Below, in pieces: positions 7,570 to 16,445 of a stretch of 30,676 bases of DNA (the first letter of the stretch is position 1; every line of letters starts with the position of its first letter). The notes beneath the pieces were generated by a model that was not told the DNA's origin, made no database searches, and was given only the letters and a program-made list of their open reading frames with translations. This stretch comes from Omnitrophica WOR_2 bacterium RIFCSPLOWO2_01_FULL_41_12 (lineage in GTDB: Bacteria > Omnitrophota > Gorgyraeia > Gygaellales > Profunditerraquicolaceae). The position numbers were made by a program, and so were the translations under genes. Location: assembly GCA_001805765.1 (NCBI GenBank), contig MHGW01000042.1, forward strand, positions 1 through 30,676. The letters are read 5' to 3'.

Positions 7570-8127
7570 ATGAAAAAGATTTTGATTGGCTTAGGGATAG
7601 CATTAGTATTAATTATTGTATCTTTTATTTCGGTTTATAATAGTATAGTTGCTAAAAACGAAACGATTACCGCTAAATGGGCGCAGGTGGAAAATCAGTT
7701 GCAAAGGCGCAATGATTTAATTCCTAATTTAGTAAATAGCGTCAAGGGTTATGCCGGCCACGAAAGAACGGTTTTTCAAGAGGTGACTAATGCCCGCTCT
7801 CAATGGGCCAAGGCAAATACCGCGGATGAGAAGATAAAGGCTGCAGGCGCCACAGATACGGCATTAGCCAGGCTACTTTTAGTGGTAGAGAATTATCCAA
7901 TCTTAAAGGCAGACCAGACATTTTTAAAACTGATGGATGAATTATCCGGGACAGAAAACAGGATTGCCGTAGAGAGGATGCGTTATAACGAATCTGTCAG
8001 GGACTATAATGTTACGGTGCGTATGTTTCCCGGAAATTTGATCGCCGGAATGTTTGGCTATAAGCCAGCTACAGAATATTTTAAAGCAGAAGAAAAAGCT
8101 AAATCTGTACCGGAAGTGAAATTTTGA
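7570..8127 (+). CDS. lemA: LemA family protein
   Basis: N-terminal TM helix, QLQRRNDLIPNLV, ENYPILKAD, TENRIAVERMRYN and FPGNLIA. Confidence 0.95.
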   Translation: MKKILIGLGIALVLIIVSFISVYNSIVAKNETITAKWAQVENQLQRRNDLIPNLVNSVKGYAGHERTVFQEVTNARSQWAKANTADEKIKAAGATDTALARLLLVVENYPILKADQTFLKLMDELSGTENRIAVERMRYNESVRDYNVTVRMFPGNLIAGMFGYKPATEYFKAEEKAKSVPEVKF

Positions 8128-8131
8128 AAGA

Positions 8132-8160
8132 AGGGACAGTCCCCTGCGGGGACAGTCCCT
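8132..8160. repeat. Double-palindrome repeat, intergenic copy
   Basis: AGGGACAGTCCCCTGCGGGGACAGTCCCT is the exact reverse complement of 15541-15569. Confidence 0.9.
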
Positions 8161-8169
8161 TATAATAAA

Positions 8170-9366
8170 ATGAAATATATAGTCTTAGTTGGCGATGGAA
8201 TGGCGGATTATCCTATAAAAGAATTAGGCGGACGCACGCCCTTAGAGGTAGCTCGGACTCCCAATATGGATTTTATTGCTCAACACGGCAGGCTGGGCCG
8301 GATAAAAACCATTCCGGATAAGATGGCGCCTGCCTCGGATGTGGCCAATATTGCTATTTTAGGTTATGACCCGCAGAAATTCTATACCGGCAGAGGCCCT
8401 TTAGAGGCGGCAAATTTAGGCCTGGATTTAGAAGACGAAGATGTGGCTTTTCGCTGTAACTTGATTACTGCTTCAGGCGACAGCATTGTGGATTATAGCG
8501 CCGGCCATATCAGCTCTAAAGAAGCGGGCGAATTGATAAAATTTATTGACCAGAATTTAGGCACTAATCACATTAAGTTTTATCCCGGGGTAAGTTACCG
8601 GCACCTGATGTTAATAAAAAGAGGTGCTGAAGAACATTTGCAGGATTTAGTCTGTCAGCCGCCGCATGATATTACCGGCTTTAGTATCTCCAAGAATTTA
8701 CCCAAAGGAGAAAGCGCAGAAATTATTATCAGGTTAATGCAGGAGTCACGCAAGATTTTAGAGAGCCATGAAATAAATCAGGTCAGGATTGATTTAAAAG
8801 AGAATCCTGCGAATATGATCTGGCTCTGGGGCCCGGGTAAGAAACCCAGCCTGCCGAAATTTTCGCAAAAATACGGACTTTCGGGAAGCGTAATCTCCGC
8901 AGTAGACTTAATTAAGGGTTTAGGCAGGATATTAGATTTGCAAGTCATCAATGTCAAGGGCGCCACCGGCTATTATGATACGGATTATGCGGCTAAGGCA
9001 AAGGCGGCATTGAAATCCCTGGAGGAAAAAGATTTTGTCTTTTTACACGTAGAAGCGCCTGATGAAGCCGGCCATAACGGAGATCTACGGGAGAAAATTA
9101 CCGCGATTGAAAGGTTTGACCAATTAGTCGTCGGCACTATTTTAAATGCTTTAAAACGCAAAAAGAACTCGCGGATCTTAGTTTTACCCGACCATGCTAC
9201 GCCTGTTTCGCTAAAGACGCATGTGCCGGATCCGGTATTTTTTGGTATATACGGCAAAGGTATTATCGGCAGAGGATTTTTAAATTACAGCGAAAAAGAG
9301 GCAGAGAAATCCGACCTTTATTTTGAAAAAGGCCATGAACTGATGGATTATTTTATTAAATTATGA
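8170..9366 (+). CDS. apgM: Cofactor-independent phosphoglycerate mutase, ApgM type (family also proposed as homoserine kinase)
   Basis: GDGMAD, PASDVAN (phospho-Ser), SYRHL, HVEAPDEAGH and PDHATP. Confidence 0.85.
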   Translation: MKYIVLVGDGMADYPIKELGGRTPLEVARTPNMDFIAQHGRLGRIKTIPDKMAPASDVANIAILGYDPQKFYTGRGPLEAANLGLDLEDEDVAFRCNLITASGDSIVDYSAGHISSKEAGELIKFIDQNLGTNHIKFYPGVSYRHLMLIKRGAEEHLQDLVCQPPHDITGFSISKNLPKGESAEIIIRLMQESRKILESHEINQVRIDLKENPANMIWLWGPGKKPSLPKFSQKYGLSGSVISAVDLIKGLGRILDLQVINVKGATGYYDTDYAAKAKAALKSLEEKDFVFLHVEAPDEAGHNGDLREKITAIERFDQLVVGTILNALKRKKNSRILVLPDHATPVSLKTHVPDPVFFGIYGKGIIGRGFLNYSEKEAEKSDLYFEKGHELMDYFIKL

Positions 9367-10955
9367 ATTCCTTGTTTATTGTTATCATAGCCATAGTATT
9401 GTTTTTCTTGGCCTATAAATTCTATGCTAAAAAATTAGAAGGCCTTTGGCAGATTGACCCTAAAAGGCCGACTCCGGCTTTTTCCAAATATGACAGCGTA
9501 GATTATATCCCGGCAAAAAACTGGCTGGTTTTGTTTGGCCATCATTTTGCCTCTATTGCCGGAGCAGGCCCGATTATCGGGCCGGTGATTGCGGTGATGC
9601 TCTGGGGTTGGCTGCCGGCTTATATTTGGGTAATTTTCGGCACCATCTTTATCGGCGGAGTGCATGATTTTGGGGCATTGATTACTTCCGTGCGGGAAGG
9701 CGGTTCTTCAGTGGCGGATATTGCCCAGCATGTTATTTCCCGAAGGGCGAAGATTATTTTTTCCCTGTTTGTGTGGCTGGCCTTAATTTTAGTCATTGCT
9801 GTCTTTGCCTATCTTTGTGCGGATACCTTTGTCAAAGAACCCAAGATTGTTTTACCATCATTAGGATTAATACCGGTAGCCATGCTGGTAGGGTATCTTT
9901 TATATCATTTACGGGTAAATAGCGTATTGGCTACTATATTTGGCCTGGTATCTTTATTAGGCCTCATATTTTTAGGTAACCACATAGCTATTAATAATAA
10001 TTTAACCTTCTGGTTATTCGTTCTCTTTATCTATTGTTTTTTTGCTTCTGTTTTACCGGTAAACATACTTTTACAGCCGCGGGATTATCTTTCCAGTTTC
10101 TTATTATTTTTTGGCCTAGGCGCAGGATATCTAGGTTTATTATTATTTCCCCCCAAAATGAATATGCCTTTTTATCACAGCGGGATGTCTTCTGAAGGTT
10201 ATCTCTGGCCGGCATTATTTGTGACCGTGGCCTGCGGAGCAGTTTCCGGTTTTCACGCTTTAATTGCCAGCGGCACATCTTCAAAACAAATTGCCAATGA
10301 ACGCCAGGTAAGGAGAATCGGATACGGAGGAATGGTCGCCGAGGGCTTGGTAGCAGTGTTAGCCATAATTGCCACCGCATCTTTATTCAGGCCTGGCGAA
10401 GATTTTAGTAAAGCCTTAAAAACCCTGACCCCTATCGGAATATATGGTAAAGGATACGGGTTAATCACCAATAGAATTTTAGGTAATCACGGCGCTTTTA
10501 TCGCCATAACTATATTAAATGCATTTATCCTTACGACACTGGATACTGCGACAAGAATAGCCCGCTACTTAAGCGAAGAATTATTTAAAATCAAAAACCG
10601 TTATTTTTCAACCTTACTCATTGTCATCTTGGGTGCGGCTTTAGCCTTAAGCGGTAAATGGCAAAAAATCTGGCCGGCCTTTGGCGCATCCAATCAGTTA
10701 GTCGCTGCTCTGGCCTTATTTGTTTTAAGCTGTTGGCTTCTTTCCAAAGATAAAACGATAAAGTTTACTTTATTGCCGGCGTTCTTTATGCTGGTTACCG
10801 CTGTGGCAGCATTAGTATTACAGACCATCAAATATTTTGTCCATAAAGATATTGTGCTTTGTATGATTAGCGGCAGTTTAATTATATTATCGGTAATTAT
10901 GGTTTATGAAATTATCCGCTCATTGAAGGAGAAAAAAGCATGCATAAGGGTTTAA
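9363..10955 (+). CDS. cstA: Carbon starvation protein A family transporter
   Basis: GHHFASIAGAGPIIGP, GGVHDF, ACGAVSGFH, YGGMVAEG, TTLDTATR and WPAFGASNQL, with many TM helices. Confidence 0.93.
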   Translation: MNSLFIVIIAIVLFFLAYKFYAKKLEGLWQIDPKRPTPAFSKYDSVDYIPAKNWLVLFGHHFASIAGAGPIIGPVIAVMLWGWLPAYIWVIFGTIFIGGVHDFGALITSVREGGSSVADIAQHVISRRAKIIFSLFVWLALILVIAVFAYLCADTFVKEPKIVLPSLGLIPVAMLVGYLLYHLRVNSVLATIFGLVSLLGLIFLGNHIAINNNLTFWLFVLFIYCFFASVLPVNILLQPRDYLSSFLLFFGLGAGYLGLLLFPPKMNMPFYHSGMSSEGYLWPALFVTVACGAVSGFHALIASGTSSKQIANERQVRRIGYGGMVAEGLVAVLAIIATASLFRPGEDFSKALKTLTPIGIYGKGYGLITNRILGNHGAFIAITILNAFILTTLDTATRIARYLSEELFKIKNRYFSTLLIVILGAALALSGKWQKIWPAFGASNQLVAALALFVLSCWLLSKDKTIKFTLLPAFFMLVTAVAALVLQTIKYFVHKDIVLCMISGSLIILSVIMVYEIIRSLKEKKACIRV

Positions 10956-12160
10956 TTGTGCAGAAATTCGGCGGCTCTTCCGTAGCTAATCTCAGCCGCA
11001 TCCAGAATGTGGCCAGAAGAGTGGTCAATTACAGCAAAAAAGGCTATGACTTGGTAGTGGTGGTTTCTGCTTTGGGAGATACCACTGACGAACTCATTGA
11101 GTTAGCGCATAAAATTAACCCTGAGCCTGCGGAGAGGGAAATGGATATGCTTTTATCCACCGGCGAACAGATTTCCGTGGCCTTGTTAGCTATGGCTATC
11201 CATAAGTTAGGCTATGAGGCTATATCTTTTACCGGAGCGCAGGTAGGCATTATTACTGATACCAGCCATACCCGCGCCCGGATTTTAAAAATAAATGCGG
11301 ATAAAATAAAGGAAGAACTAAAAAACGGAAAGATCGTGATTGTCGCCGGTTTTCAGGGAGTTACTTTAAATCAAGATATTACTACTTTAGGCCGGGGCGG
11401 TTCGGATTTAACTGCCGTGGCCTTGGCCAAGGAATTGTGTGCCCGCGAATGCCAGATATATACTGATGTCGCGGGTATTTATACTACTGACCCGCACATA
11501 GAACGCCGGGCCAAGAAAATTTCCCGTATTACTTATGATGAGATGCTGGAGATGGCATCGTTGGGTGCCCAGGTAATGCAGGCGCGCTCCATAGAGGTAG
11601 CCAAAAAATTCAATGTGCCTATACATGTGCGCTCTTCATTTTCTAAAAAATCCGGAACCATGATTGTAAGGGAGGTTAAAAGAATGGAAGACGTAGTGGT
11701 AAGCGGGGTAACTCTAAATAAAAAAGAGGCCAAGATTACGGTTTGTAATGTCCCTGACCGTCCGGGCGTAGCCGCCAAGATATTCAAAGAATTATCCAGC
11801 GGCGGAATAAGTGTGGATATGATTGTGCAGAATGTCAGCCATACCCGGCAAACCGACATTTCTTTTACCGTAAATAAATCCGGCTTGAGCAAGGCATCCC
11901 GAATCACTAAAAAGATTGCCCGGCAAATACAGGCAGATGATGTCTTGGAGGATCAAGATATCGCCCGGGTTTCCATTGTGGGCGTAGGGATGAAGTCACA
12001 TCCGGGTGTCGCTGCTAAGATGTTTGAATCTCTGGCTAAAAATAAGATTAATATTGAGATGATTTCTACTTCCGATATCAGCATATCCTGTATTATCAAA
12101 AAGAAATCCGGAGAGACCGCAGTCAGGGCATTGCATGAAAAATTCGGGTTAGCAAAATAG
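10940..12160 (+). CDS. lysC: Aspartate kinase with two ACT domains
   Basis: VQKFGGSSV, VVVVSALG, TTLGRGGSDLTAV, IYTDV and two C-terminal ACT repeats. Confidence 0.96.
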   Translation: MHKGLIVQKFGGSSVANLSRIQNVARRVVNYSKKGYDLVVVVSALGDTTDELIELAHKINPEPAEREMDMLLSTGEQISVALLAMAIHKLGYEAISFTGAQVGIITDTSHTRARILKINADKIKEELKNGKIVIVAGFQGVTLNQDITTLGRGGSDLTAVALAKELCARECQIYTDVAGIYTTDPHIERRAKKISRITYDEMLEMASLGAQVMQARSIEVAKKFNVPIHVRSSFSKKSGTMIVREVKRMEDVVVSGVTLNKKEAKITVCNVPDRPGVAAKIFKELSSGGISVDMIVQNVSHTRQTDISFTVNKSGLSKASRITKKIARQIQADDVLEDQDIARVSIVGVGMKSHPGVAAKMFESLAKNKINIEMISTSDISISCIIKKKSGETAVRALHEKFGLAK

Positions 12161-12171
12161 CGAGGTTGAAG

Positions 12172-13740
12172 ATGTCTAAAGTAAAATTATACGATACCAC
12201 TTTAAGGGACGGAGCGCAGGGAGAAGGTATTTCTTATTCGGTAATGGATAAGGTTAGGATTGCCCAGGAATTAGATAAATTAGGCATCCATTATATTGAG
12301 GGCGGCTGGCCGGGTTCTAACCCCAAAGATATGGAATTCTATTTAAAAATGGCAAAGGTACGCTTAAAGAATAGCGTATTGGTGGCTTTTGGTTCCACAC
12401 GTAAAGCCCATACCCACGCAAATCAAGACCAGAACTTAAAAGCTATTTTGAAATCACAGGCAAAGATTGTGGCTATCTTTGGTAAGACCTGGGATTTACA
12501 TATTAAAGACGTCTTAAAGACTACACTCGATGAGAACCTGCAGATGATTAAAGATAGTTTGAGTTTTCTGGCCTCAAAAGGCCTGATCGTATTTTATGAT
12601 GCCGAGCATTTCTTTGATGCCTATAAGGCTAATAAAGAATATAGCCTAAAGTGTCTGTTGACTGCTCAGGAAGCAGGCGCAAAGGCCATTGTTCTCTGCG
12701 ATACAAACGGCGGGACACTTACCTCTGAGATTTCCCGGGTTATTCAGGAAATCCGGCCTAAAATAAATGTTGGCTTAGGTATTCATTGTCATAATGATGC
12801 TGGTTTAGCAGTAGCAAATTCCCTGGTTGCCGTTGAGGCGGGTTGCGATATGGTCCAGGGTACAATTAATGGTTATGGCGAACGCTGCGGCAACGCGGAT
12901 TTAATCCCGCTTATTGCCAACCTGAAATTAAAATTGGGTATTGACTGTATCAGCGACGATAAATTAAAAGAATTGACTAGGGCTTCGCATTTTGTCAGCG
13001 AGATAAGCAATATGCGGCAAAAAGATGATCAACCTTATGCCGGCGTATCCAGTTTTGCCCATAAAGGCGGTGTGCATATTAATGCCGTAATGAAGAATCC
13101 CAGAACCTATGAGCATATTGAACCGTCACTGGTAGGGAATCGGCGCAGGATCTTGGTTTCGGAATTAGCGGGTAAGACCGGGATTTTAATTCGCGCCAAA
13201 GAATTAGAATTAGATTTAAGCAAAGAAGACCCCCAGACCAAAAGGATCCTTAAGCTCATCCAGAATTTAGAGCACCAGGGTTATCATTTTGAGGCGGCAG
13301 AGGCTTCCTTTGAATTATTAATGAAAAAAGCCCTGAAGAAGTATAAGAAATTTTTTGAATTAGAGGGTTTTCGGGTAGTGGTAGAGAAGCGTTCTGATAA
13401 AAAGATTGCGTCGGAGGCGATTATCAAATTAAAGGTAAAAGGCGTAAAAGAACACACTGCTGCTGAAGGCGACGGCCCGGTAAATGCCTTGGATAATGCC
13501 CTGCGTAAGGCATTAAAAGATTTTTATCCCACCCTATCCAAAATGCATCTTTCTGATTTTAAGGTGCGCGTATTGGAGGAGAAGGCAGGCACAGCTAGCC
13601 GGGTGCGTGTGCTTATCCAGTCTCAGGATGAAACAGATACCTGGAGCACTATCGGTGTTTCCGGAAATATTATTGAAGCCAGTTGGCAGGCATTAGTGGA
13701 TAGTGTGGAATATAAGTTATTGAAGGATAGAGTAGAATAA
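12172..13740 (+). CDS. cimA: Citramalate synthase (LeuA/CimA family)
   Basis: DTTLRDGAQGEG, IEGGWPGSNPKD, YDAEHFFD, HCHND, GERCGN, HKGGVH and a regulatory C-domain. SD GAGG precedes ATG12172. Confidence 0.88.
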   Translation: MSKVKLYDTTLRDGAQGEGISYSVMDKVRIAQELDKLGIHYIEGGWPGSNPKDMEFYLKMAKVRLKNSVLVAFGSTRKAHTHANQDQNLKAILKSQAKIVAIFGKTWDLHIKDVLKTTLDENLQMIKDSLSFLASKGLIVFYDAEHFFDAYKANKEYSLKCLLTAQEAGAKAIVLCDTNGGTLTSEISRVIQEIRPKINVGLGIHCHNDAGLAVANSLVAVEAGCDMVQGTINGYGERCGNADLIPLIANLKLKLGIDCISDDKLKELTRASHFVSEISNMRQKDDQPYAGVSSFAHKGGVHINAVMKNPRTYEHIEPSLVGNRRRILVSELAGKTGILIRAKELELDLSKEDPQTKRILKLIQNLEHQGYHFEAAEASFELLMKKALKKYKKFFELEGFRVVVEKRSDKKIASEAIIKLKVKGVKEHTAAEGDGPVNALDNALRKALKDFYPTLSKMHLSDFKVRVLEEKAGTASRVRVLIQSQDETDTWSTIGVSGNIIEASWQALVDSVEYKLLKDRVE

Positions 13741-16445
13741 TGCATGTTGAGCTTCCCAGTCAATATAACCCCAAAGAAACCGAAAATAAGTGGTATAAGT
13801 TTTGGCAAGAGCATAATCTATTTTCCGCAAAACCTAATCCTACCAAAAAACCTTTCTGCATAGTTATTCCTCCGCCCAATGTTACAGGTATCCTGCATAT
13901 GGGCCATGCCCTTAATAATACTATCCAAGATATCCTCATTAGATACCATCGGATGAAAGGCGAAGAATCTTTGTGGATGCCGGGAACTGACCATGCCGGT
14001 ATTGCCACGCAGAATGTAGTGGAGAAGGCGATTGCCAAGGAAGGATTAAAACGCCAGGATTTAGGTAGAGAGAAATTCCTGGAACGCGTCTGGCAGTGGC
14101 AGAAGGAATACGGCTCTACGATTATCCATCAACTGCAGAAACTGGGCGCATCCTGCGATTGGCAGAGGACGCGCTTTACTATGGACGAAGATTATTCCCG
14201 GTCAGTGATAGAGGCTTTTGTACGGTTATATGAAAAGGGACTGATTTACCAAGGTAATTATATTATCAACTGGTGCCCTCGGTGTCAGACTGCGCTTTCT
14301 GATGAAGAGGCGCCGCATAAAGAAATCCAAGGGAATCTTTATTATTTAAGATATCCTTTAAAGCAGGGACAGTCCCTTTCAGGGACAGTCCCTGCTTATA
14401 TTGTAGTGGCTACTACTCGTCCAGAAACTATGCTCGGCGATACCGCAGTAGCAGTAAATCCTAAAGATAAACGCTATAAGAAATATATTGGCCAAACTTT
14501 AATTTTACCTTTGATAAACCGGGAAATAAAAGTAATTGCGGACGCTATGGTAGATATGAAGTTCGGCACAGGCGCAGTCAAGGTAACGCCAGCGCACGAT
14601 CCCAATGATTATACATTGGGCAAGAAACATCATCTTGAATTTGTAAATATAATGTATGCTGATGCACGCTTAAACGAAAATGCCGGAGAATACAAGGATA
14701 TGGATAGGTTTGCAGCCAGAGATATTATCCTGAAGGACCTAAAAGAAAAAGGGCTATTGGAGAAAATAGAGCCGCATCAGTTGTCCGCAGGCCATTGTTA
14801 TCGTTGCCATACCATCATTGAGCCATATTTATCCAAGCAATGGTTTGTAAAAATGTCACCCCTTTCCAAACCCGCATTGGAAGTGGTGAGAAAAGGAAAA
14901 ATTAAATTCTATCCTAAACGTTGGACTAAGGTTTATCTTAACTGGATGGAGAATATCCAGGATTGGTGCATCTCGCGCCAAATCTGGTGGGGACACCGCC
15001 TGCCTGTTTATTATTGTAAAAACTGCCCAAATCTTCAACAAGCTGGTATTATTGTTTCCAGAATAAAGCCAGATAAATGTCCGAGCTGTGGCTCAACGGA
15101 TATTTATCAGGATGAAGATGTCTTGGATACCTGGTTTTCCTCGTGGCTGTGGCCGTTCGCCACTTTTAAAAATGGAGAAGATTTAAAATATTTCTATCCT
15201 ACCTCAAGTTTGGTCACTGCTCCGGAAATAATTTTTTTCTGGGTGGCGCGCATGATTATGGCGGGATTAGAATTTATGCAGGATATACCCTTTAAAGATG
15301 TTTATATCCATGGTACTGTACGCGATATTGAAGGTAAAAAAATGTCCAAATCCCTGGGGAATATTATTGACCCCTTAGAGATTATCCATGAATATGGCGC
15401 AGATGCCCTGCGTTTTAGCTTGATATCTATTACCGCCCAAGGCCAGGATGTGTTTTTATCCAAAGAAAGGTTCCAACAAGGCAGAAACTTCGCCAATAAA
15501 ATCTGGAATGCCTCCCGCTTTATTTTAATGAATCTTACCCAGGGACTGTCCCCGCAGGGGACTGTCCCTGCTATAGATTTATGCGTGTTTTTTAAGAAAG
15601 AGGACCTGGATATTGTCAACCGCTGGATATTAAGTAGGTTTTATACTGTACTGAAAGAGACTAATAAAAATTTAGAGGCCTATAAATTTAATGAGGCGGC
15701 AAATACCTTATACGGCTTTTTCTGGCATGAATTCTGCGATTGGTATTTAGAGATGATTAAATCCGATATTAAAAACCAGCGCAATCAAGTAGTGATGTAT
15801 AAAGTCTTAGAAAAATTCTTAAGGCTGATACACCCTTTTATGCCTTATATTAGCGAAGAAATCTGGCAGAGAATATATAATCAGGGACAGTCCCCTGGGG
15901 GAGGAGTCCCTGGAAATAGTATTATGATTCAGCCCTGGCCGCATGTGCAGGAACAGATGATCGATAAAAAAAAGGAAGATAAGTTGAATCTAATATTTGA
16001 GATAATTGCCAGCATCCGCAATATACGCCAGGAATTAGAAATACCACTCCAGAAGGAGATAGGGGTAATTATCGCCTCCCCAAATCAAGAAAACAGAAAA
16101 CTTATTGAAGAAATGTCCGGCCAGATAAAAAAAATAGCCAAATTAAGCAATCTCAATATTAATGCAAAATACAGCCACGTTAAATCCAGCGTTAGTGGCG
16201 TGATAAAGGATGTGCATGTAACCTGCCTGCTTTCTGGAATAATTGATTTGGAAAGAGAGAAAGCAAAGCTGGATGCACGTATCCGAGAATTAGCAGCACA
16301 GATAAGCGCTAAGAAAAAAACTTTAAGTAATAAAGCATTCTTAAAGAAAGCCCCGGAAGAAATAGTAGAAAAAGAGAGTGATGGACTTAAGGAATTAAAT
16401 GGTATTTTAAAGCGGATTAAGGAAATTAAGAATGAATTACAGTAA
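13740..16445 (+). CDS. valS: Valine--tRNA ligase, with three in-frame repeat insertions
   Basis: PPPNVTG, HMGH (HIGH), TTRPET, FGTGAVKVTPAHD, WCISRQIWWGH, KMSKS and a C-terminal coiled coil. Confidence 0.98.
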   Translation: MHVELPSQYNPKETENKWYKFWQEHNLFSAKPNPTKKPFCIVIPPPNVTGILHMGHALNNTIQDILIRYHRMKGEESLWMPGTDHAGIATQNVVEKAIAKEGLKRQDLGREKFLERVWQWQKEYGSTIIHQLQKLGASCDWQRTRFTMDEDYSRSVIEAFVRLYEKGLIYQGNYIINWCPRCQTALSDEEAPHKEIQGNLYYLRYPLKQGQSLSGTVPAYIVVATTRPETMLGDTAVAVNPKDKRYKKYIGQTLILPLINREIKVIADAMVDMKFGTGAVKVTPAHDPNDYTLGKKHHLEFVNIMYADARLNENAGEYKDMDRFAARDIILKDLKEKGLLEKIEPHQLSAGHCYRCHTIIEPYLSKQWFVKMSPLSKPALEVVRKGKIKFYPKRWTKVYLNWMENIQDWCISRQIWWGHRLPVYYCKNCPNLQQAGIIVSRIKPDKCPSCGSTDIYQDEDVLDTWFSSWLWPFATFKNGEDLKYFYPTSSLVTAPEIIFFWVARMIMAGLEFMQDIPFKDVYIHGTVRDIEGKKMSKSLGNIIDPLEIIHEYGADALRFSLISITAQGQDVFLSKERFQQGRNFANKIWNASRFILMNLTQGLSPQGTVPAIDLCVFFKKEDLDIVNRWILSRFYTVLKETNKNLEAYKFNEAANTLYGFFWHEFCDWYLEMIKSDIKNQRNQVVMYKVLEKFLRLIHPFMPYISEEIWQRIYNQGQSPGGGVPGNSIMIQPWPHVQEQMIDKKKEDKLNLIFEIIASIRNIRQELEIPLQKEIGVIIASPNQENRKLIEEMSGQIKKIAKLSNLNINAKYSHVKSSVSGVIKDVHVTCLLSGIIDLEREKAKLDARIRELAAQISAKKKTLSNKAFLKKAPEEIVEKESDGLKELNGILKRIKEIKNELQ
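14364..14393. repeat. Double-palindrome repeat, in-frame copy 1 in valS (QGQSLSGTVP)
   Basis: CAGGGACAGTCCCTTTCAGGGACAGTCCCT. With flanks (14361-14397, AAGC/GCTT) it forms a near-perfect long hairpin. Confidence 0.9.
15540..15569. repeat. Double-palindrome repeat, in-frame copy 2 in valS (QGLSPQGTVP)
   Basis: CAGGGACTGTCCCCGCAGGGGACTGTCCCT. Positions 15541-15569 are the exact reverse complement of 8132-8160. Confidence 0.9.
15882..15911. repeat. Double-palindrome repeat, degenerate in-frame copy 3 in valS (QGQSPGGGVP)
   Basis: CAGGGACAGTCCCCTGGGGGAGGAGTCCCT has 4 mismatches over 29 nt to the intergenic copy, all in the second half. Confidence 0.82.

Follow-up and report, generated by a model that had tools for sequence, protein, structure and literature searches.

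A hairpin repeat resembling repetitive extragenic palindromes in valS and other genes of an uncultured Omnitrophota bacterium, and exact copies of it beside Y1 transposase genes in other phyla

The stretch of DNA analysed here (the window) comprises the first 30,676 nt of contig MHGW01000042.1 of Omnitrophica WOR_2 bacterium RIFCSPLOWO2_01_FULL_41_12, and our subject is a 29-nt palindromic repeat unit that lies once between genes of this window and three times inside its valyl-tRNA synthetase gene, valS. The window's own genome (G000; labels in G, L, P and C denote genomes, loci, proteins and contigs, and those in X sequencing runs) is a metagenome-assembled genome (MAG) of 704 kb in 52 contigs, 64% complete and with 41% G+C, in which genes were called by a simple codon-usage method that gave a coding density of 92% and reproduced the open reading frames of the window. 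The intergenic unit, at 8132–8160, occupies part of a 42-nt spacer between a LemA-family gene (7570–8127) and a phosphoglycerate-mutase-like gene (8170–9366), both named from Pfam marks on a sister contig, and it begins 5 nt past the stop codon of the former and ends 10 nt ahead of the start codon of the latter. It is in the A-form on the + strand, as judged from motif and fold, and its loop is TGC (GCA on the complementary strand). The other three units are in frame in valS (13740–16445, + strand, 901 aa), for which the sister contig shows the Pfam families tRNA-synt_1, Anticodon_1 and Val_tRNA-synt_C. Site 1 (14365–14393, core 14366–14392) is an A-form unit read as GQSLSGTVP at residues 210–218; site 2 (15541–15569) is a T-form unit with a GCA loop, read as GLSPQGTVP at residues 602–610; and site 3 (15883–15911, core 15884–15910) is an A-form unit with a decayed second half, read as GQSPGGGVP at residues 716–724. 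The units at 8132–8160 and 15541–15569 are exact reverse complements (29/29), as the original prediction from this sequence had stated, and the two further, diverged copies it had reported are those at sites 1 and 3. Shuffled sequences would lead one to expect 0.01 occurrences of the 11-mer GGGACWGTCCC in the window, which has seven.

The unit is laid out as A-GGGACWGTCCCC-NNN-GGGGACWGTCCC-T, and its basic module is a 13-nt palindrome, GGGGACWGTCCCC, which is usually present as a direct doublet with its members 16 nt apart. As a single strand, the unit is predicted to fold into one hairpin, in which stem segments of 7 bp and 6 bp are separated by a 1x1 W/W mismatch and closed by a triloop; on the T-form strand, the 13-bp hairpin predicted for the doublet has a GNA triloop, and its mismatch is a conserved T/T. 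Calculated energies range from −13 to −14.6 kcal/mol for DNA and from −23 to −25 kcal/mol for RNA, with z-scores of −5 to −7 relative to shuffled sequences, and the hairpin accounts for 78–94% of the ensemble overall and for 80–89% in the DNA folds of the window copies. It had been proposed that the unit might form either two small hairpins or one long one. The predicted fold agrees with the long hairpin, while two small hairpins are unrealistic because each 13-nt palindrome would leave a loop of 1 nt. At site 1, two compensating changes in the stem (the inner pair being T-A for C-G) keep the fold perfect, and at site 3 the fold is no better than those of shuffled sequences. The 27-nt core equals nine codons and is free of stop codons in all six frames, the one exception being a TAG that a GTA loop creates in a single frame. 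With its 29 nt, the unit falls within the usual description of repetitive extragenic palindromic (REP) elements as short (20–40 nt), imperfect stem-loop palindromes.

A genome-wide count of doublets shows that the repeat is indeed a dispersed family, as had been anticipated, rather than a set of four copies: G000 contains 54 exact half-sites and about 30 units within its 704 kb, and 18 of the units are exact 27-mers, whereas the reversed control pattern does not occur. The loops on the T strand are GCA, GAA, GTA or GAAA. Eight of the 17 canonical 29-mers of G000 have the sequence found at 8132–8160 and 15541–15569, and 28% of all pairs are identical. The 29/29 match is therefore no sign of recency by itself, since about a quarter of pairs would be expected to be identical from the family alone; the earlier claim that this identity implied recent mobility is not supported, the more so as the same 27-mer is also present in other phyla. 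About 10 units of G000 are intergenic, about six lie over gene 3' ends, where they overlap the last codons and yield short C-terminal tails (LpxA, MurJ, TGT and PlsX), and about eight are deep in genes, namely three in valS, one each in the genes for a fumarate hydratase subunit and a GltD-like oxidoreductase (between its two domains), and three in genes for proteins lacking Pfam families. Set against the mainly extragenic placement near 3' ends that is typical of REPs, the density in G000 is moderate and the intragenic share is above the usual. Orientation relative to the sense strand is balanced (about nine T-form vs. eight A-form), and six of the eight deep units are read in the frame G(L/Q)SPxGTVP.

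The exact 27-mer extends well beyond this genome. A scan of one genome per prokaryotic species placed it in at least 118 stretches among the matches listed, with hosts in Omnitrophota, Aminicenantes and other Acidobacteriota, Actinomycetes, Gammaproteobacteria, Planctomycetota, Myxococcaceae, Eubacteriales and others, and mis-binning cannot explain this spread because some of the matches lie on contigs of more than 1 Mb. Within Omnitrophota, it is present in 28 of the 201 genomes surveyed (G000 and 200 others), with the most copies in G000 (18), followed by G214 and G240 (11 each). In seven genomes from at least five other phyla, a Y1 gene of the REP-associated tyrosine transposase (RAYT) type is bracketed by the exact unit, in the T-form to its left and in the A-form to its right: L093 in Aminicenantes, L060 and L321 in Planctomycetota, L144+L064 and L304 in Actinomycetes (the flanks of L304 being of mixed forms), L301 in Myxococcaceae and L307 in Eubacteriales. 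The kinship with REP elements and Y1/HUH enzymes that the original prediction had proposed is borne out by these inverted flanks, an arrangement known from REP copies around RAYT genes, although it was found in these seven genomes and not in G000 or the sampled Omnitrophota. Five of the seven unit-flanked enzymes (L093, L307, L301, L060 and L321) form one clade in the tree (support 96/98), the four clade enzymes tested match NF047646 (REP-associated tyrosine transposase) with 68–89 bits, and the nearest solved structure to the L093 enzyme is that of E. coli TnpA-REP (4ER8). Three unit-flanked enzymes that were compared pairwise share only 31–36% identity, yet the 27-mer around them is kept identical. 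At L093 (4453–4490), L307 (2024–2058) and L144+L064, the 3' end of the open Y1 frame runs into the downstream units, and the C-terminal residues of these enzymes may be encoded by their own repeat.

The units at the loci in other phyla also point to a strand preference. The same central W is present in both halves in 126 of 135 units, and 104 of these 126 have a GNA loop on the T strand; C-GNA-G triloops are unusually stable in DNA. Judged from sequence, the GNA bias of the T-strand loop indicates a strand-specific constraint. IS200/IS605 and REP enzymes recognise one strand as a hairpin (PMC6006769), and the conserved mismatch, together with the strand-specific loop, argues for recognition of one strand in this manner.

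The kind of repeat to which the unit belongs has been described before. TIRtrons consist of RAYT-like genes (TIRYT) with inverted repeats that share GGGGWSAS, some of which are "double palindromic" and some of which belong to moderately abundant families (Di Nocera et al., 2013; PMC3733652). Most TIRYT were later assigned to subclass 2.1 (Quentin et al., 2018; PMC6006769), which corresponds to Group 1 of Bertels et al. (2017; PMC5581495); motifs were listed for this subclass, but no REP-like hairpin was found, and its signature is NHVH or NH(Y/F)H, W(E/Q) or FQ, and a YIELNP-like motif in a long protein with a C-terminal helix-turn-helix (HTH) extension (PMC6006769). The unit resembles these systems in that GGGGACAG, the first 8 nt of its 13-mer, fits GGGGWSAS, in that it flanks the Y1 gene in inverted orientation, and in that the enzyme motifs, as read by eye, fit subclass 2.1. 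For example, NHFH, WQ and YIEGNP are found in the L093 enzyme and NHVH, FQ and YIERNP in the RAYT on contig C35 of G000, within an overall range of NH(F/V)H, (W/F)Q and Y(I/V)xxNP. It differs in being a hairpin-forming doublet that is also dispersed, with no cognate enzyme found for the G000 family, and in that no C-terminal HTH was detected: Pfam searches of the four Y1 proteins of G000 and NCBIfam searches of four unit-flanked enzymes gave only Y1/REP-transposase matches. The proteins compared with this signature are 175–231 aa long, as compared with a median of 238 aa for subclass 2.1.

Classical REP/REPIN-RAYT systems of E. coli and Pseudomonas (Nunvar et al., 2010, PMC2817692; Bertels and Rainey, 2011, PMC3116915) share with the unit the short imperfect palindromes, high copy number and position mostly at gene ends, as well as the inverted flanks of a single-copy Y1 gene and the recognition of a hairpin as single-stranded DNA. 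By contrast, the unit does not conserve their GTAG/GTGG head, its G000 copies are mostly singletons rather than REPIN doublets, its sequence is conserved across phyla instead of being species-specific, and its intragenic share is larger. Rickettsia palindromic elements (RPEs), which are about 100–150 nt long, show no sequence kinship with the unit, which has only nine codons and fills the same three valS loops in several genera. However, like RPEs and the intragenic REPs of Opitutus terrae and Xanthomonas, it is an in-frame palindrome in conserved genes, including those for aminoacyl-tRNA synthetases, tolerated in loops where it adds short peptide segments; such in-frame copies within genes, tRNA synthetases included, had already been described (PMC3733652). 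The unit and its place beside Y1 genes fit the TIRYT/RAYT repeats of the GGGGWSAS kind. A search for the 11-mer in the literature returned only unrelated eukaryotic and viral primers, and neither the texts nor the supplements of the REP survey papers contain the motif; no description of this hairpin doublet, or of its conservation across phyla with one enzyme clade, was found in the literature searched.

The only change in occupancy that we observed between strains concerns valS. Its product belongs to a 90% protein cluster of four members that are 99% identical, with 901 aa in the window and 895 aa in the three others, and the only length difference lies at site 2, where the window has NL-TQGLSPQGTVPAI-DLC and the others have NL-EPCETKV-DLC. 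The site 2 unit is missing from the sister proteins P0002–P0004 and from the contigs L281–L285, five independent assemblies with the shorter form that are 99.6–99.86% identical to the window over 11–22.7 kb. The other window units are identical in the sister strains (the one at 8132–8160 in L281–L283), the site 1 unit is found in all four members of the cluster, and the strains are also fixed for the units in fumarase, MurJ, LpxA and the GltD-like protein, occasional point variants aside. A diverged patch of 54 nt (15527–15580, + strand; 10 substitutions and a net 18 nt) accounts for all 18 gap letters and 10 of the 13 mismatches between L281 and the window, leaving three mismatches in the remaining 22.6 kb. 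Occupancy thus varies among strains at site 2, as had been anticipated, but clean transposition is not what the patch records: its size, and the synonymous differences in the Arg, Asn and Leu codons flanking the unit, argue for recombination with a diverged valS allele rather than a clean insertion of 27 or 29 nt. Allelic recombination is, from the sequences compared, the best-supported mechanism of this change. The shorter form is probably the older one in this species because it is orthologue-like (NLEPxxxKVDLC) and present in several slightly different strains. A donor of the 54-nt patch was not found among about 110 valS orthologues from relatives and metagenomes, and a metagenome scan for closer valS relatives gave 73% identity at best. 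Another patch was seen in the GltD-like protein (G000 C13), where P0017 differs from P0019 and P0020 at its C-terminus: the last ~60 residues of two members of the cluster differ at scattered positions and by a 6-residue extension at the end, while the remainder is near-identical. Short-patch recombination therefore seems to be common in this population.

The same valS loops are occupied in other genera, where the units are always read as G(L/Q)SPxGTVP. The site 1 loop, which follows YPLK and normally has six residues among the orthologues, contains a unit in about a dozen of them, in either orientation and with the halves sometimes spaced apart, but in every case in the frame G(L/Q/E)SPxGTVP. 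G240, from the same family but another genus, has an exact unit at site 2, at the codon position of the window and in opposite orientation, as well as units at site 3 (intact) and at a fourth site; G011 retains decayed remnants at all three valS sites, and G024 has one at site 3. Filled alleles that could donate the window's patch are thus present in the family, to judge by these sequences. Orientation is no proof of independent insertion, since flipping the palindrome alters only the two W bases and the loop, and the valS sites are either old and kept "fresh" in some lineages or were hit repeatedly. The same YPLK loop carries different in-frame repeats in many other orthologues from Omnitrophota-like genomes (L219, L228, L036, L194, L195, L203, L214, L020, L224, L035 and L239), including heptamer arrays and paired complementary arrays; the mutually complementary heptamer arrays could form long hairpins.

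On this evidence, we consider it probable that the units are a REP-like family of small hairpins, most likely made by a Y1 HUH enzyme, which persist at gene ends and in loops, and whose occupancy is also changed by recombination between alleles. An origin by enzymatic cutting and joining is the most likely one because the exact unit brackets Y1 genes in several phyla; we infer that a Y1 enzyme of the RAYT/TIRYT type would cut and join the single-stranded unit hairpin, as in REP/REPtron systems. Copies landing in surface loops of proteins can persist because the 27-nt unit amounts to nine codons that are nearly stop-free in all frames, and in valS they are read as G(L/Q)SPxGTVP. In G000, the family is relatively abundant, with units retained at gene ends and in permissive loops, and the change at 15541–15569, whether a gain in this strain or a loss in its sisters, would have come about through a 54-nt patch derived from a diverged allele of valS.

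Several findings weigh against this interpretation. The sole polymorphic site is unlike a clean insertion. The conserved GTAG/GTGG at the 5' foot of the hairpin that characterises REPs is lacking: the classical GTAG over the first stem G is found in about half or fewer of the G000 copies, and the head is absent from the Y1-flanking copies at L093, L060 and L144. There is no Y1 gene in the window, as the original prediction had noted, and the four Y1 genes of G000 (PF01797; two score just below the cut-off of the NCBIfam REP-associated tyrosine transposase model) each have inverted flanking repeats of their own, none of which is the dispersed unit. Y1 genes of the cognate clade or flanked by units were not found in G000 or in 40 relatives, and in the 200 other Omnitrophota genomes, where homologues of the L093 enzyme reach at most 45% identity, the best 30 are all without flanking units. 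Three exact units lie in G024, a 94% complete genome without any Y1 match. An active non-autonomous element would be expected to show clean filled and empty sites and a cognate enzyme in G000, and neither was seen; the earlier suggestion that the element is active and mobilised in trans thus stays inferential, with no cognate mobiliser found in G000 or the sampled Omnitrophota. Within the limits of incomplete MAGs, the units in Omnitrophota look like orphans.

Alternatively, the units might not be mobile DNA but functional RNA or DNA structures maintained by selection where they stand, for example as terminators, attenuators or stabilisers of mRNA 3' ends. Many units do lie 5–25 nt from gene ends or over stop codons (LpxA, MurJ, TGT and PlsX), in other genomes some of the hairpins are preceded by an A-run and followed by a T-run, and the RNA fold energies given above would suit such a role. 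However, about eight units are deep in genes, orientation in G000 is unbiased with respect to transcription, and most G000 copies have no T-run; moreover, selection for stability would explain neither the identity of 24 bases in many phyla nor the mismatch kept in 93% of units, and it would leave the bracketing of Y1 genes unaddressed. We therefore regard this explanation as very unlikely, while a secondary role of the units as 3' hairpins is possible. It could also be argued that each 13-mer is bound as a duplex by a protein dimer, for instance a regulator or a nucleoid protein, and that the doublets are operator-like pairs, given that both halves are perfectly palindromic about a central base, that the halves are 16 bp apart from centre to centre and that arrays with periods of 16–19 bp exist. 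A symmetric dimer would be indifferent to the T strand, yet the two halves share their W in 126 of 135 units and the GNA loop keeps to the same strand; intragenic sites in multiple phyla would require one conserved regulator everywhere, and the only gene that is repeatedly beside the units is that of the Y1 enzyme. These points make the dimer site highly improbable in our view. Finally, the G(L/Q)SPxGTVP loop might itself be selected as a protein motif, with the identity at the DNA level as a by-product, since one frame is used by six of the eight deep G000 copies and by all units in valS orthologues. About a third of the copies are intergenic, though, and others at gene ends are in different frames; the identity reaches synonymous positions, both orientations occur, and a filter on tolerated insertions better explains the frame preference, so that we assign a protein-level origin almost no weight.

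A different objection concerns the filled allele at 15541–15569, which might be an assembly chimera of about 54 nt through valS of a related, co-occurring organism. The filled form is recorded on one contig only, that of the window itself, while the empty form is on 11, and the patch is as diverged as would be expected from another genus; contigs of four runs gave only the empty allele for run X2, a comparison that is noisy at 85% likeness. On the other hand, the patch is in frame, 100% identity is regained within a few codons on both sides, and in run X3, at a depth of 36–51, the gaps typical of the empty form are lacking, which is weak evidence. G240, of a related genus, has a unit at exactly this codon position, and such alleles are therefore real. 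We consider a chimera to be unlikely, and even if the window were chimeric, only the claim of a strain polymorphism would be affected, not the nature of the family.

In G000, units lie at a contig start (C6:11–37) and before an N-run (C19:1718–1744), and for this reason the family probably breaks the assembly and its copy number is underestimated; past the C6 start, which begins with a unit, no Y1 gene was found on the sister contigs. A supposed larger repeat before tandem paralogues on C19 was rejected, as it consists of units at plsX/fabD gene junctions. A composite subfamily (C19:5021–5083, C19:7114–7176, C21:9287–9372 and C39:38864–38927; loci L278 and L279) has a T-form unit followed directly by two direct repeats of GCGAGATAAG, 8 nt apart, the second extended to ...GCC, and then by an A-run, a ribosome-binding site and a start codon. 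Only four such motif pairs exist in G000, every one behind a unit, and the flanks of L052 and L061 are similar; the subfamily may be a longer element or a regulatory module. Inverted unit pairs 300–500 nt apart in G084, G240 and G171 enclose no candidate enzyme gene. An Rfam scan gave no family at any unit, and its sole match is a tRNA at 106–176 of the window (73 bits), which lies within the mechanically called open reading frame 40–987, so that this call is probably wrong at its 5' end.

The Y1 genes of G000 have repeats of several kinds. Those of the C35 RAYT and its clade, about 120 nt upstream of the gene and directly downstream of it (C35:145–175 and 869–899, L002; also L339, L341, L342, L162 and L163), consist of a 13-nt palindrome, GGGGACGYTCCCC, then 3–4 nt and GGTGNCACC, and are built like the unit but differ in sequence. 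This enzyme was rejected as mobiliser of the units because the two do not occur together: G017, G018 and G005 have close orthologues of the C35 RAYT and no exact units, and G010, G011 and G024 have units and no C35 RAYT. A second REPtron on C18 (6078–6113 and 6817–6852, L001) contains a RAYT-like gene of 162 aa with two AAAACGTTTCTAA repeats per side, inverted, and AAAACGTTTCTAA is also dispersed in a few copies as inverted pairs (C24:15523/15590, C45:1137/1181 and C25:17482/17505). Two adjacent, divergent Y1-like genes at C50:3609–5507 (L003 and L004) encode proteins of 239 and 256 aa with weak PF01797 matches, the first being flanked by the palindrome CTGATTAAC-TWA-GTTAATCAG, of which the assembly has no other copies.

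Within the reading of the units as a REP-like family made by a Y1 enzyme, a more specific proposal can be formulated, which we regard as tentative and, as a whole, rather doubtful. The Omnitrophota units would be orphan REPs whose enzyme was lost or never present, kept perfect at the same protein loops of different genera by copy correction between units (flip and refresh at palindromes) and by short-patch recombination between lineages, and serving as portable loop modules of nine codons, while the 27-mer with its T/T mismatch would be the recognition hairpin of one RAYT clade from at least five phyla and would be conserved more deeply than the enzyme.

The unit offers a concrete candidate DNA substrate, a hairpin of 29 nt whose T/T mismatch is fixed and whose loop is GNA, for the Group 1/subclass 2.1/TIRYT enzymes, a large and poorly understood group of domesticated Y1 transposases to which no hairpin REP had previously been assigned. 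It also accounts for contig breaks at units and, for annotation, for odd 9-residue G(L/Q)SPxGTVP segments and C-terminal tails in Omnitrophota proteins. The copies described here document in-frame hairpin repeats in essential genes of an uncultured phylum with small genomes, and the one site that differs between strains of 99.9% identity is usable for studying how such inserts are gained, lost and tolerated.

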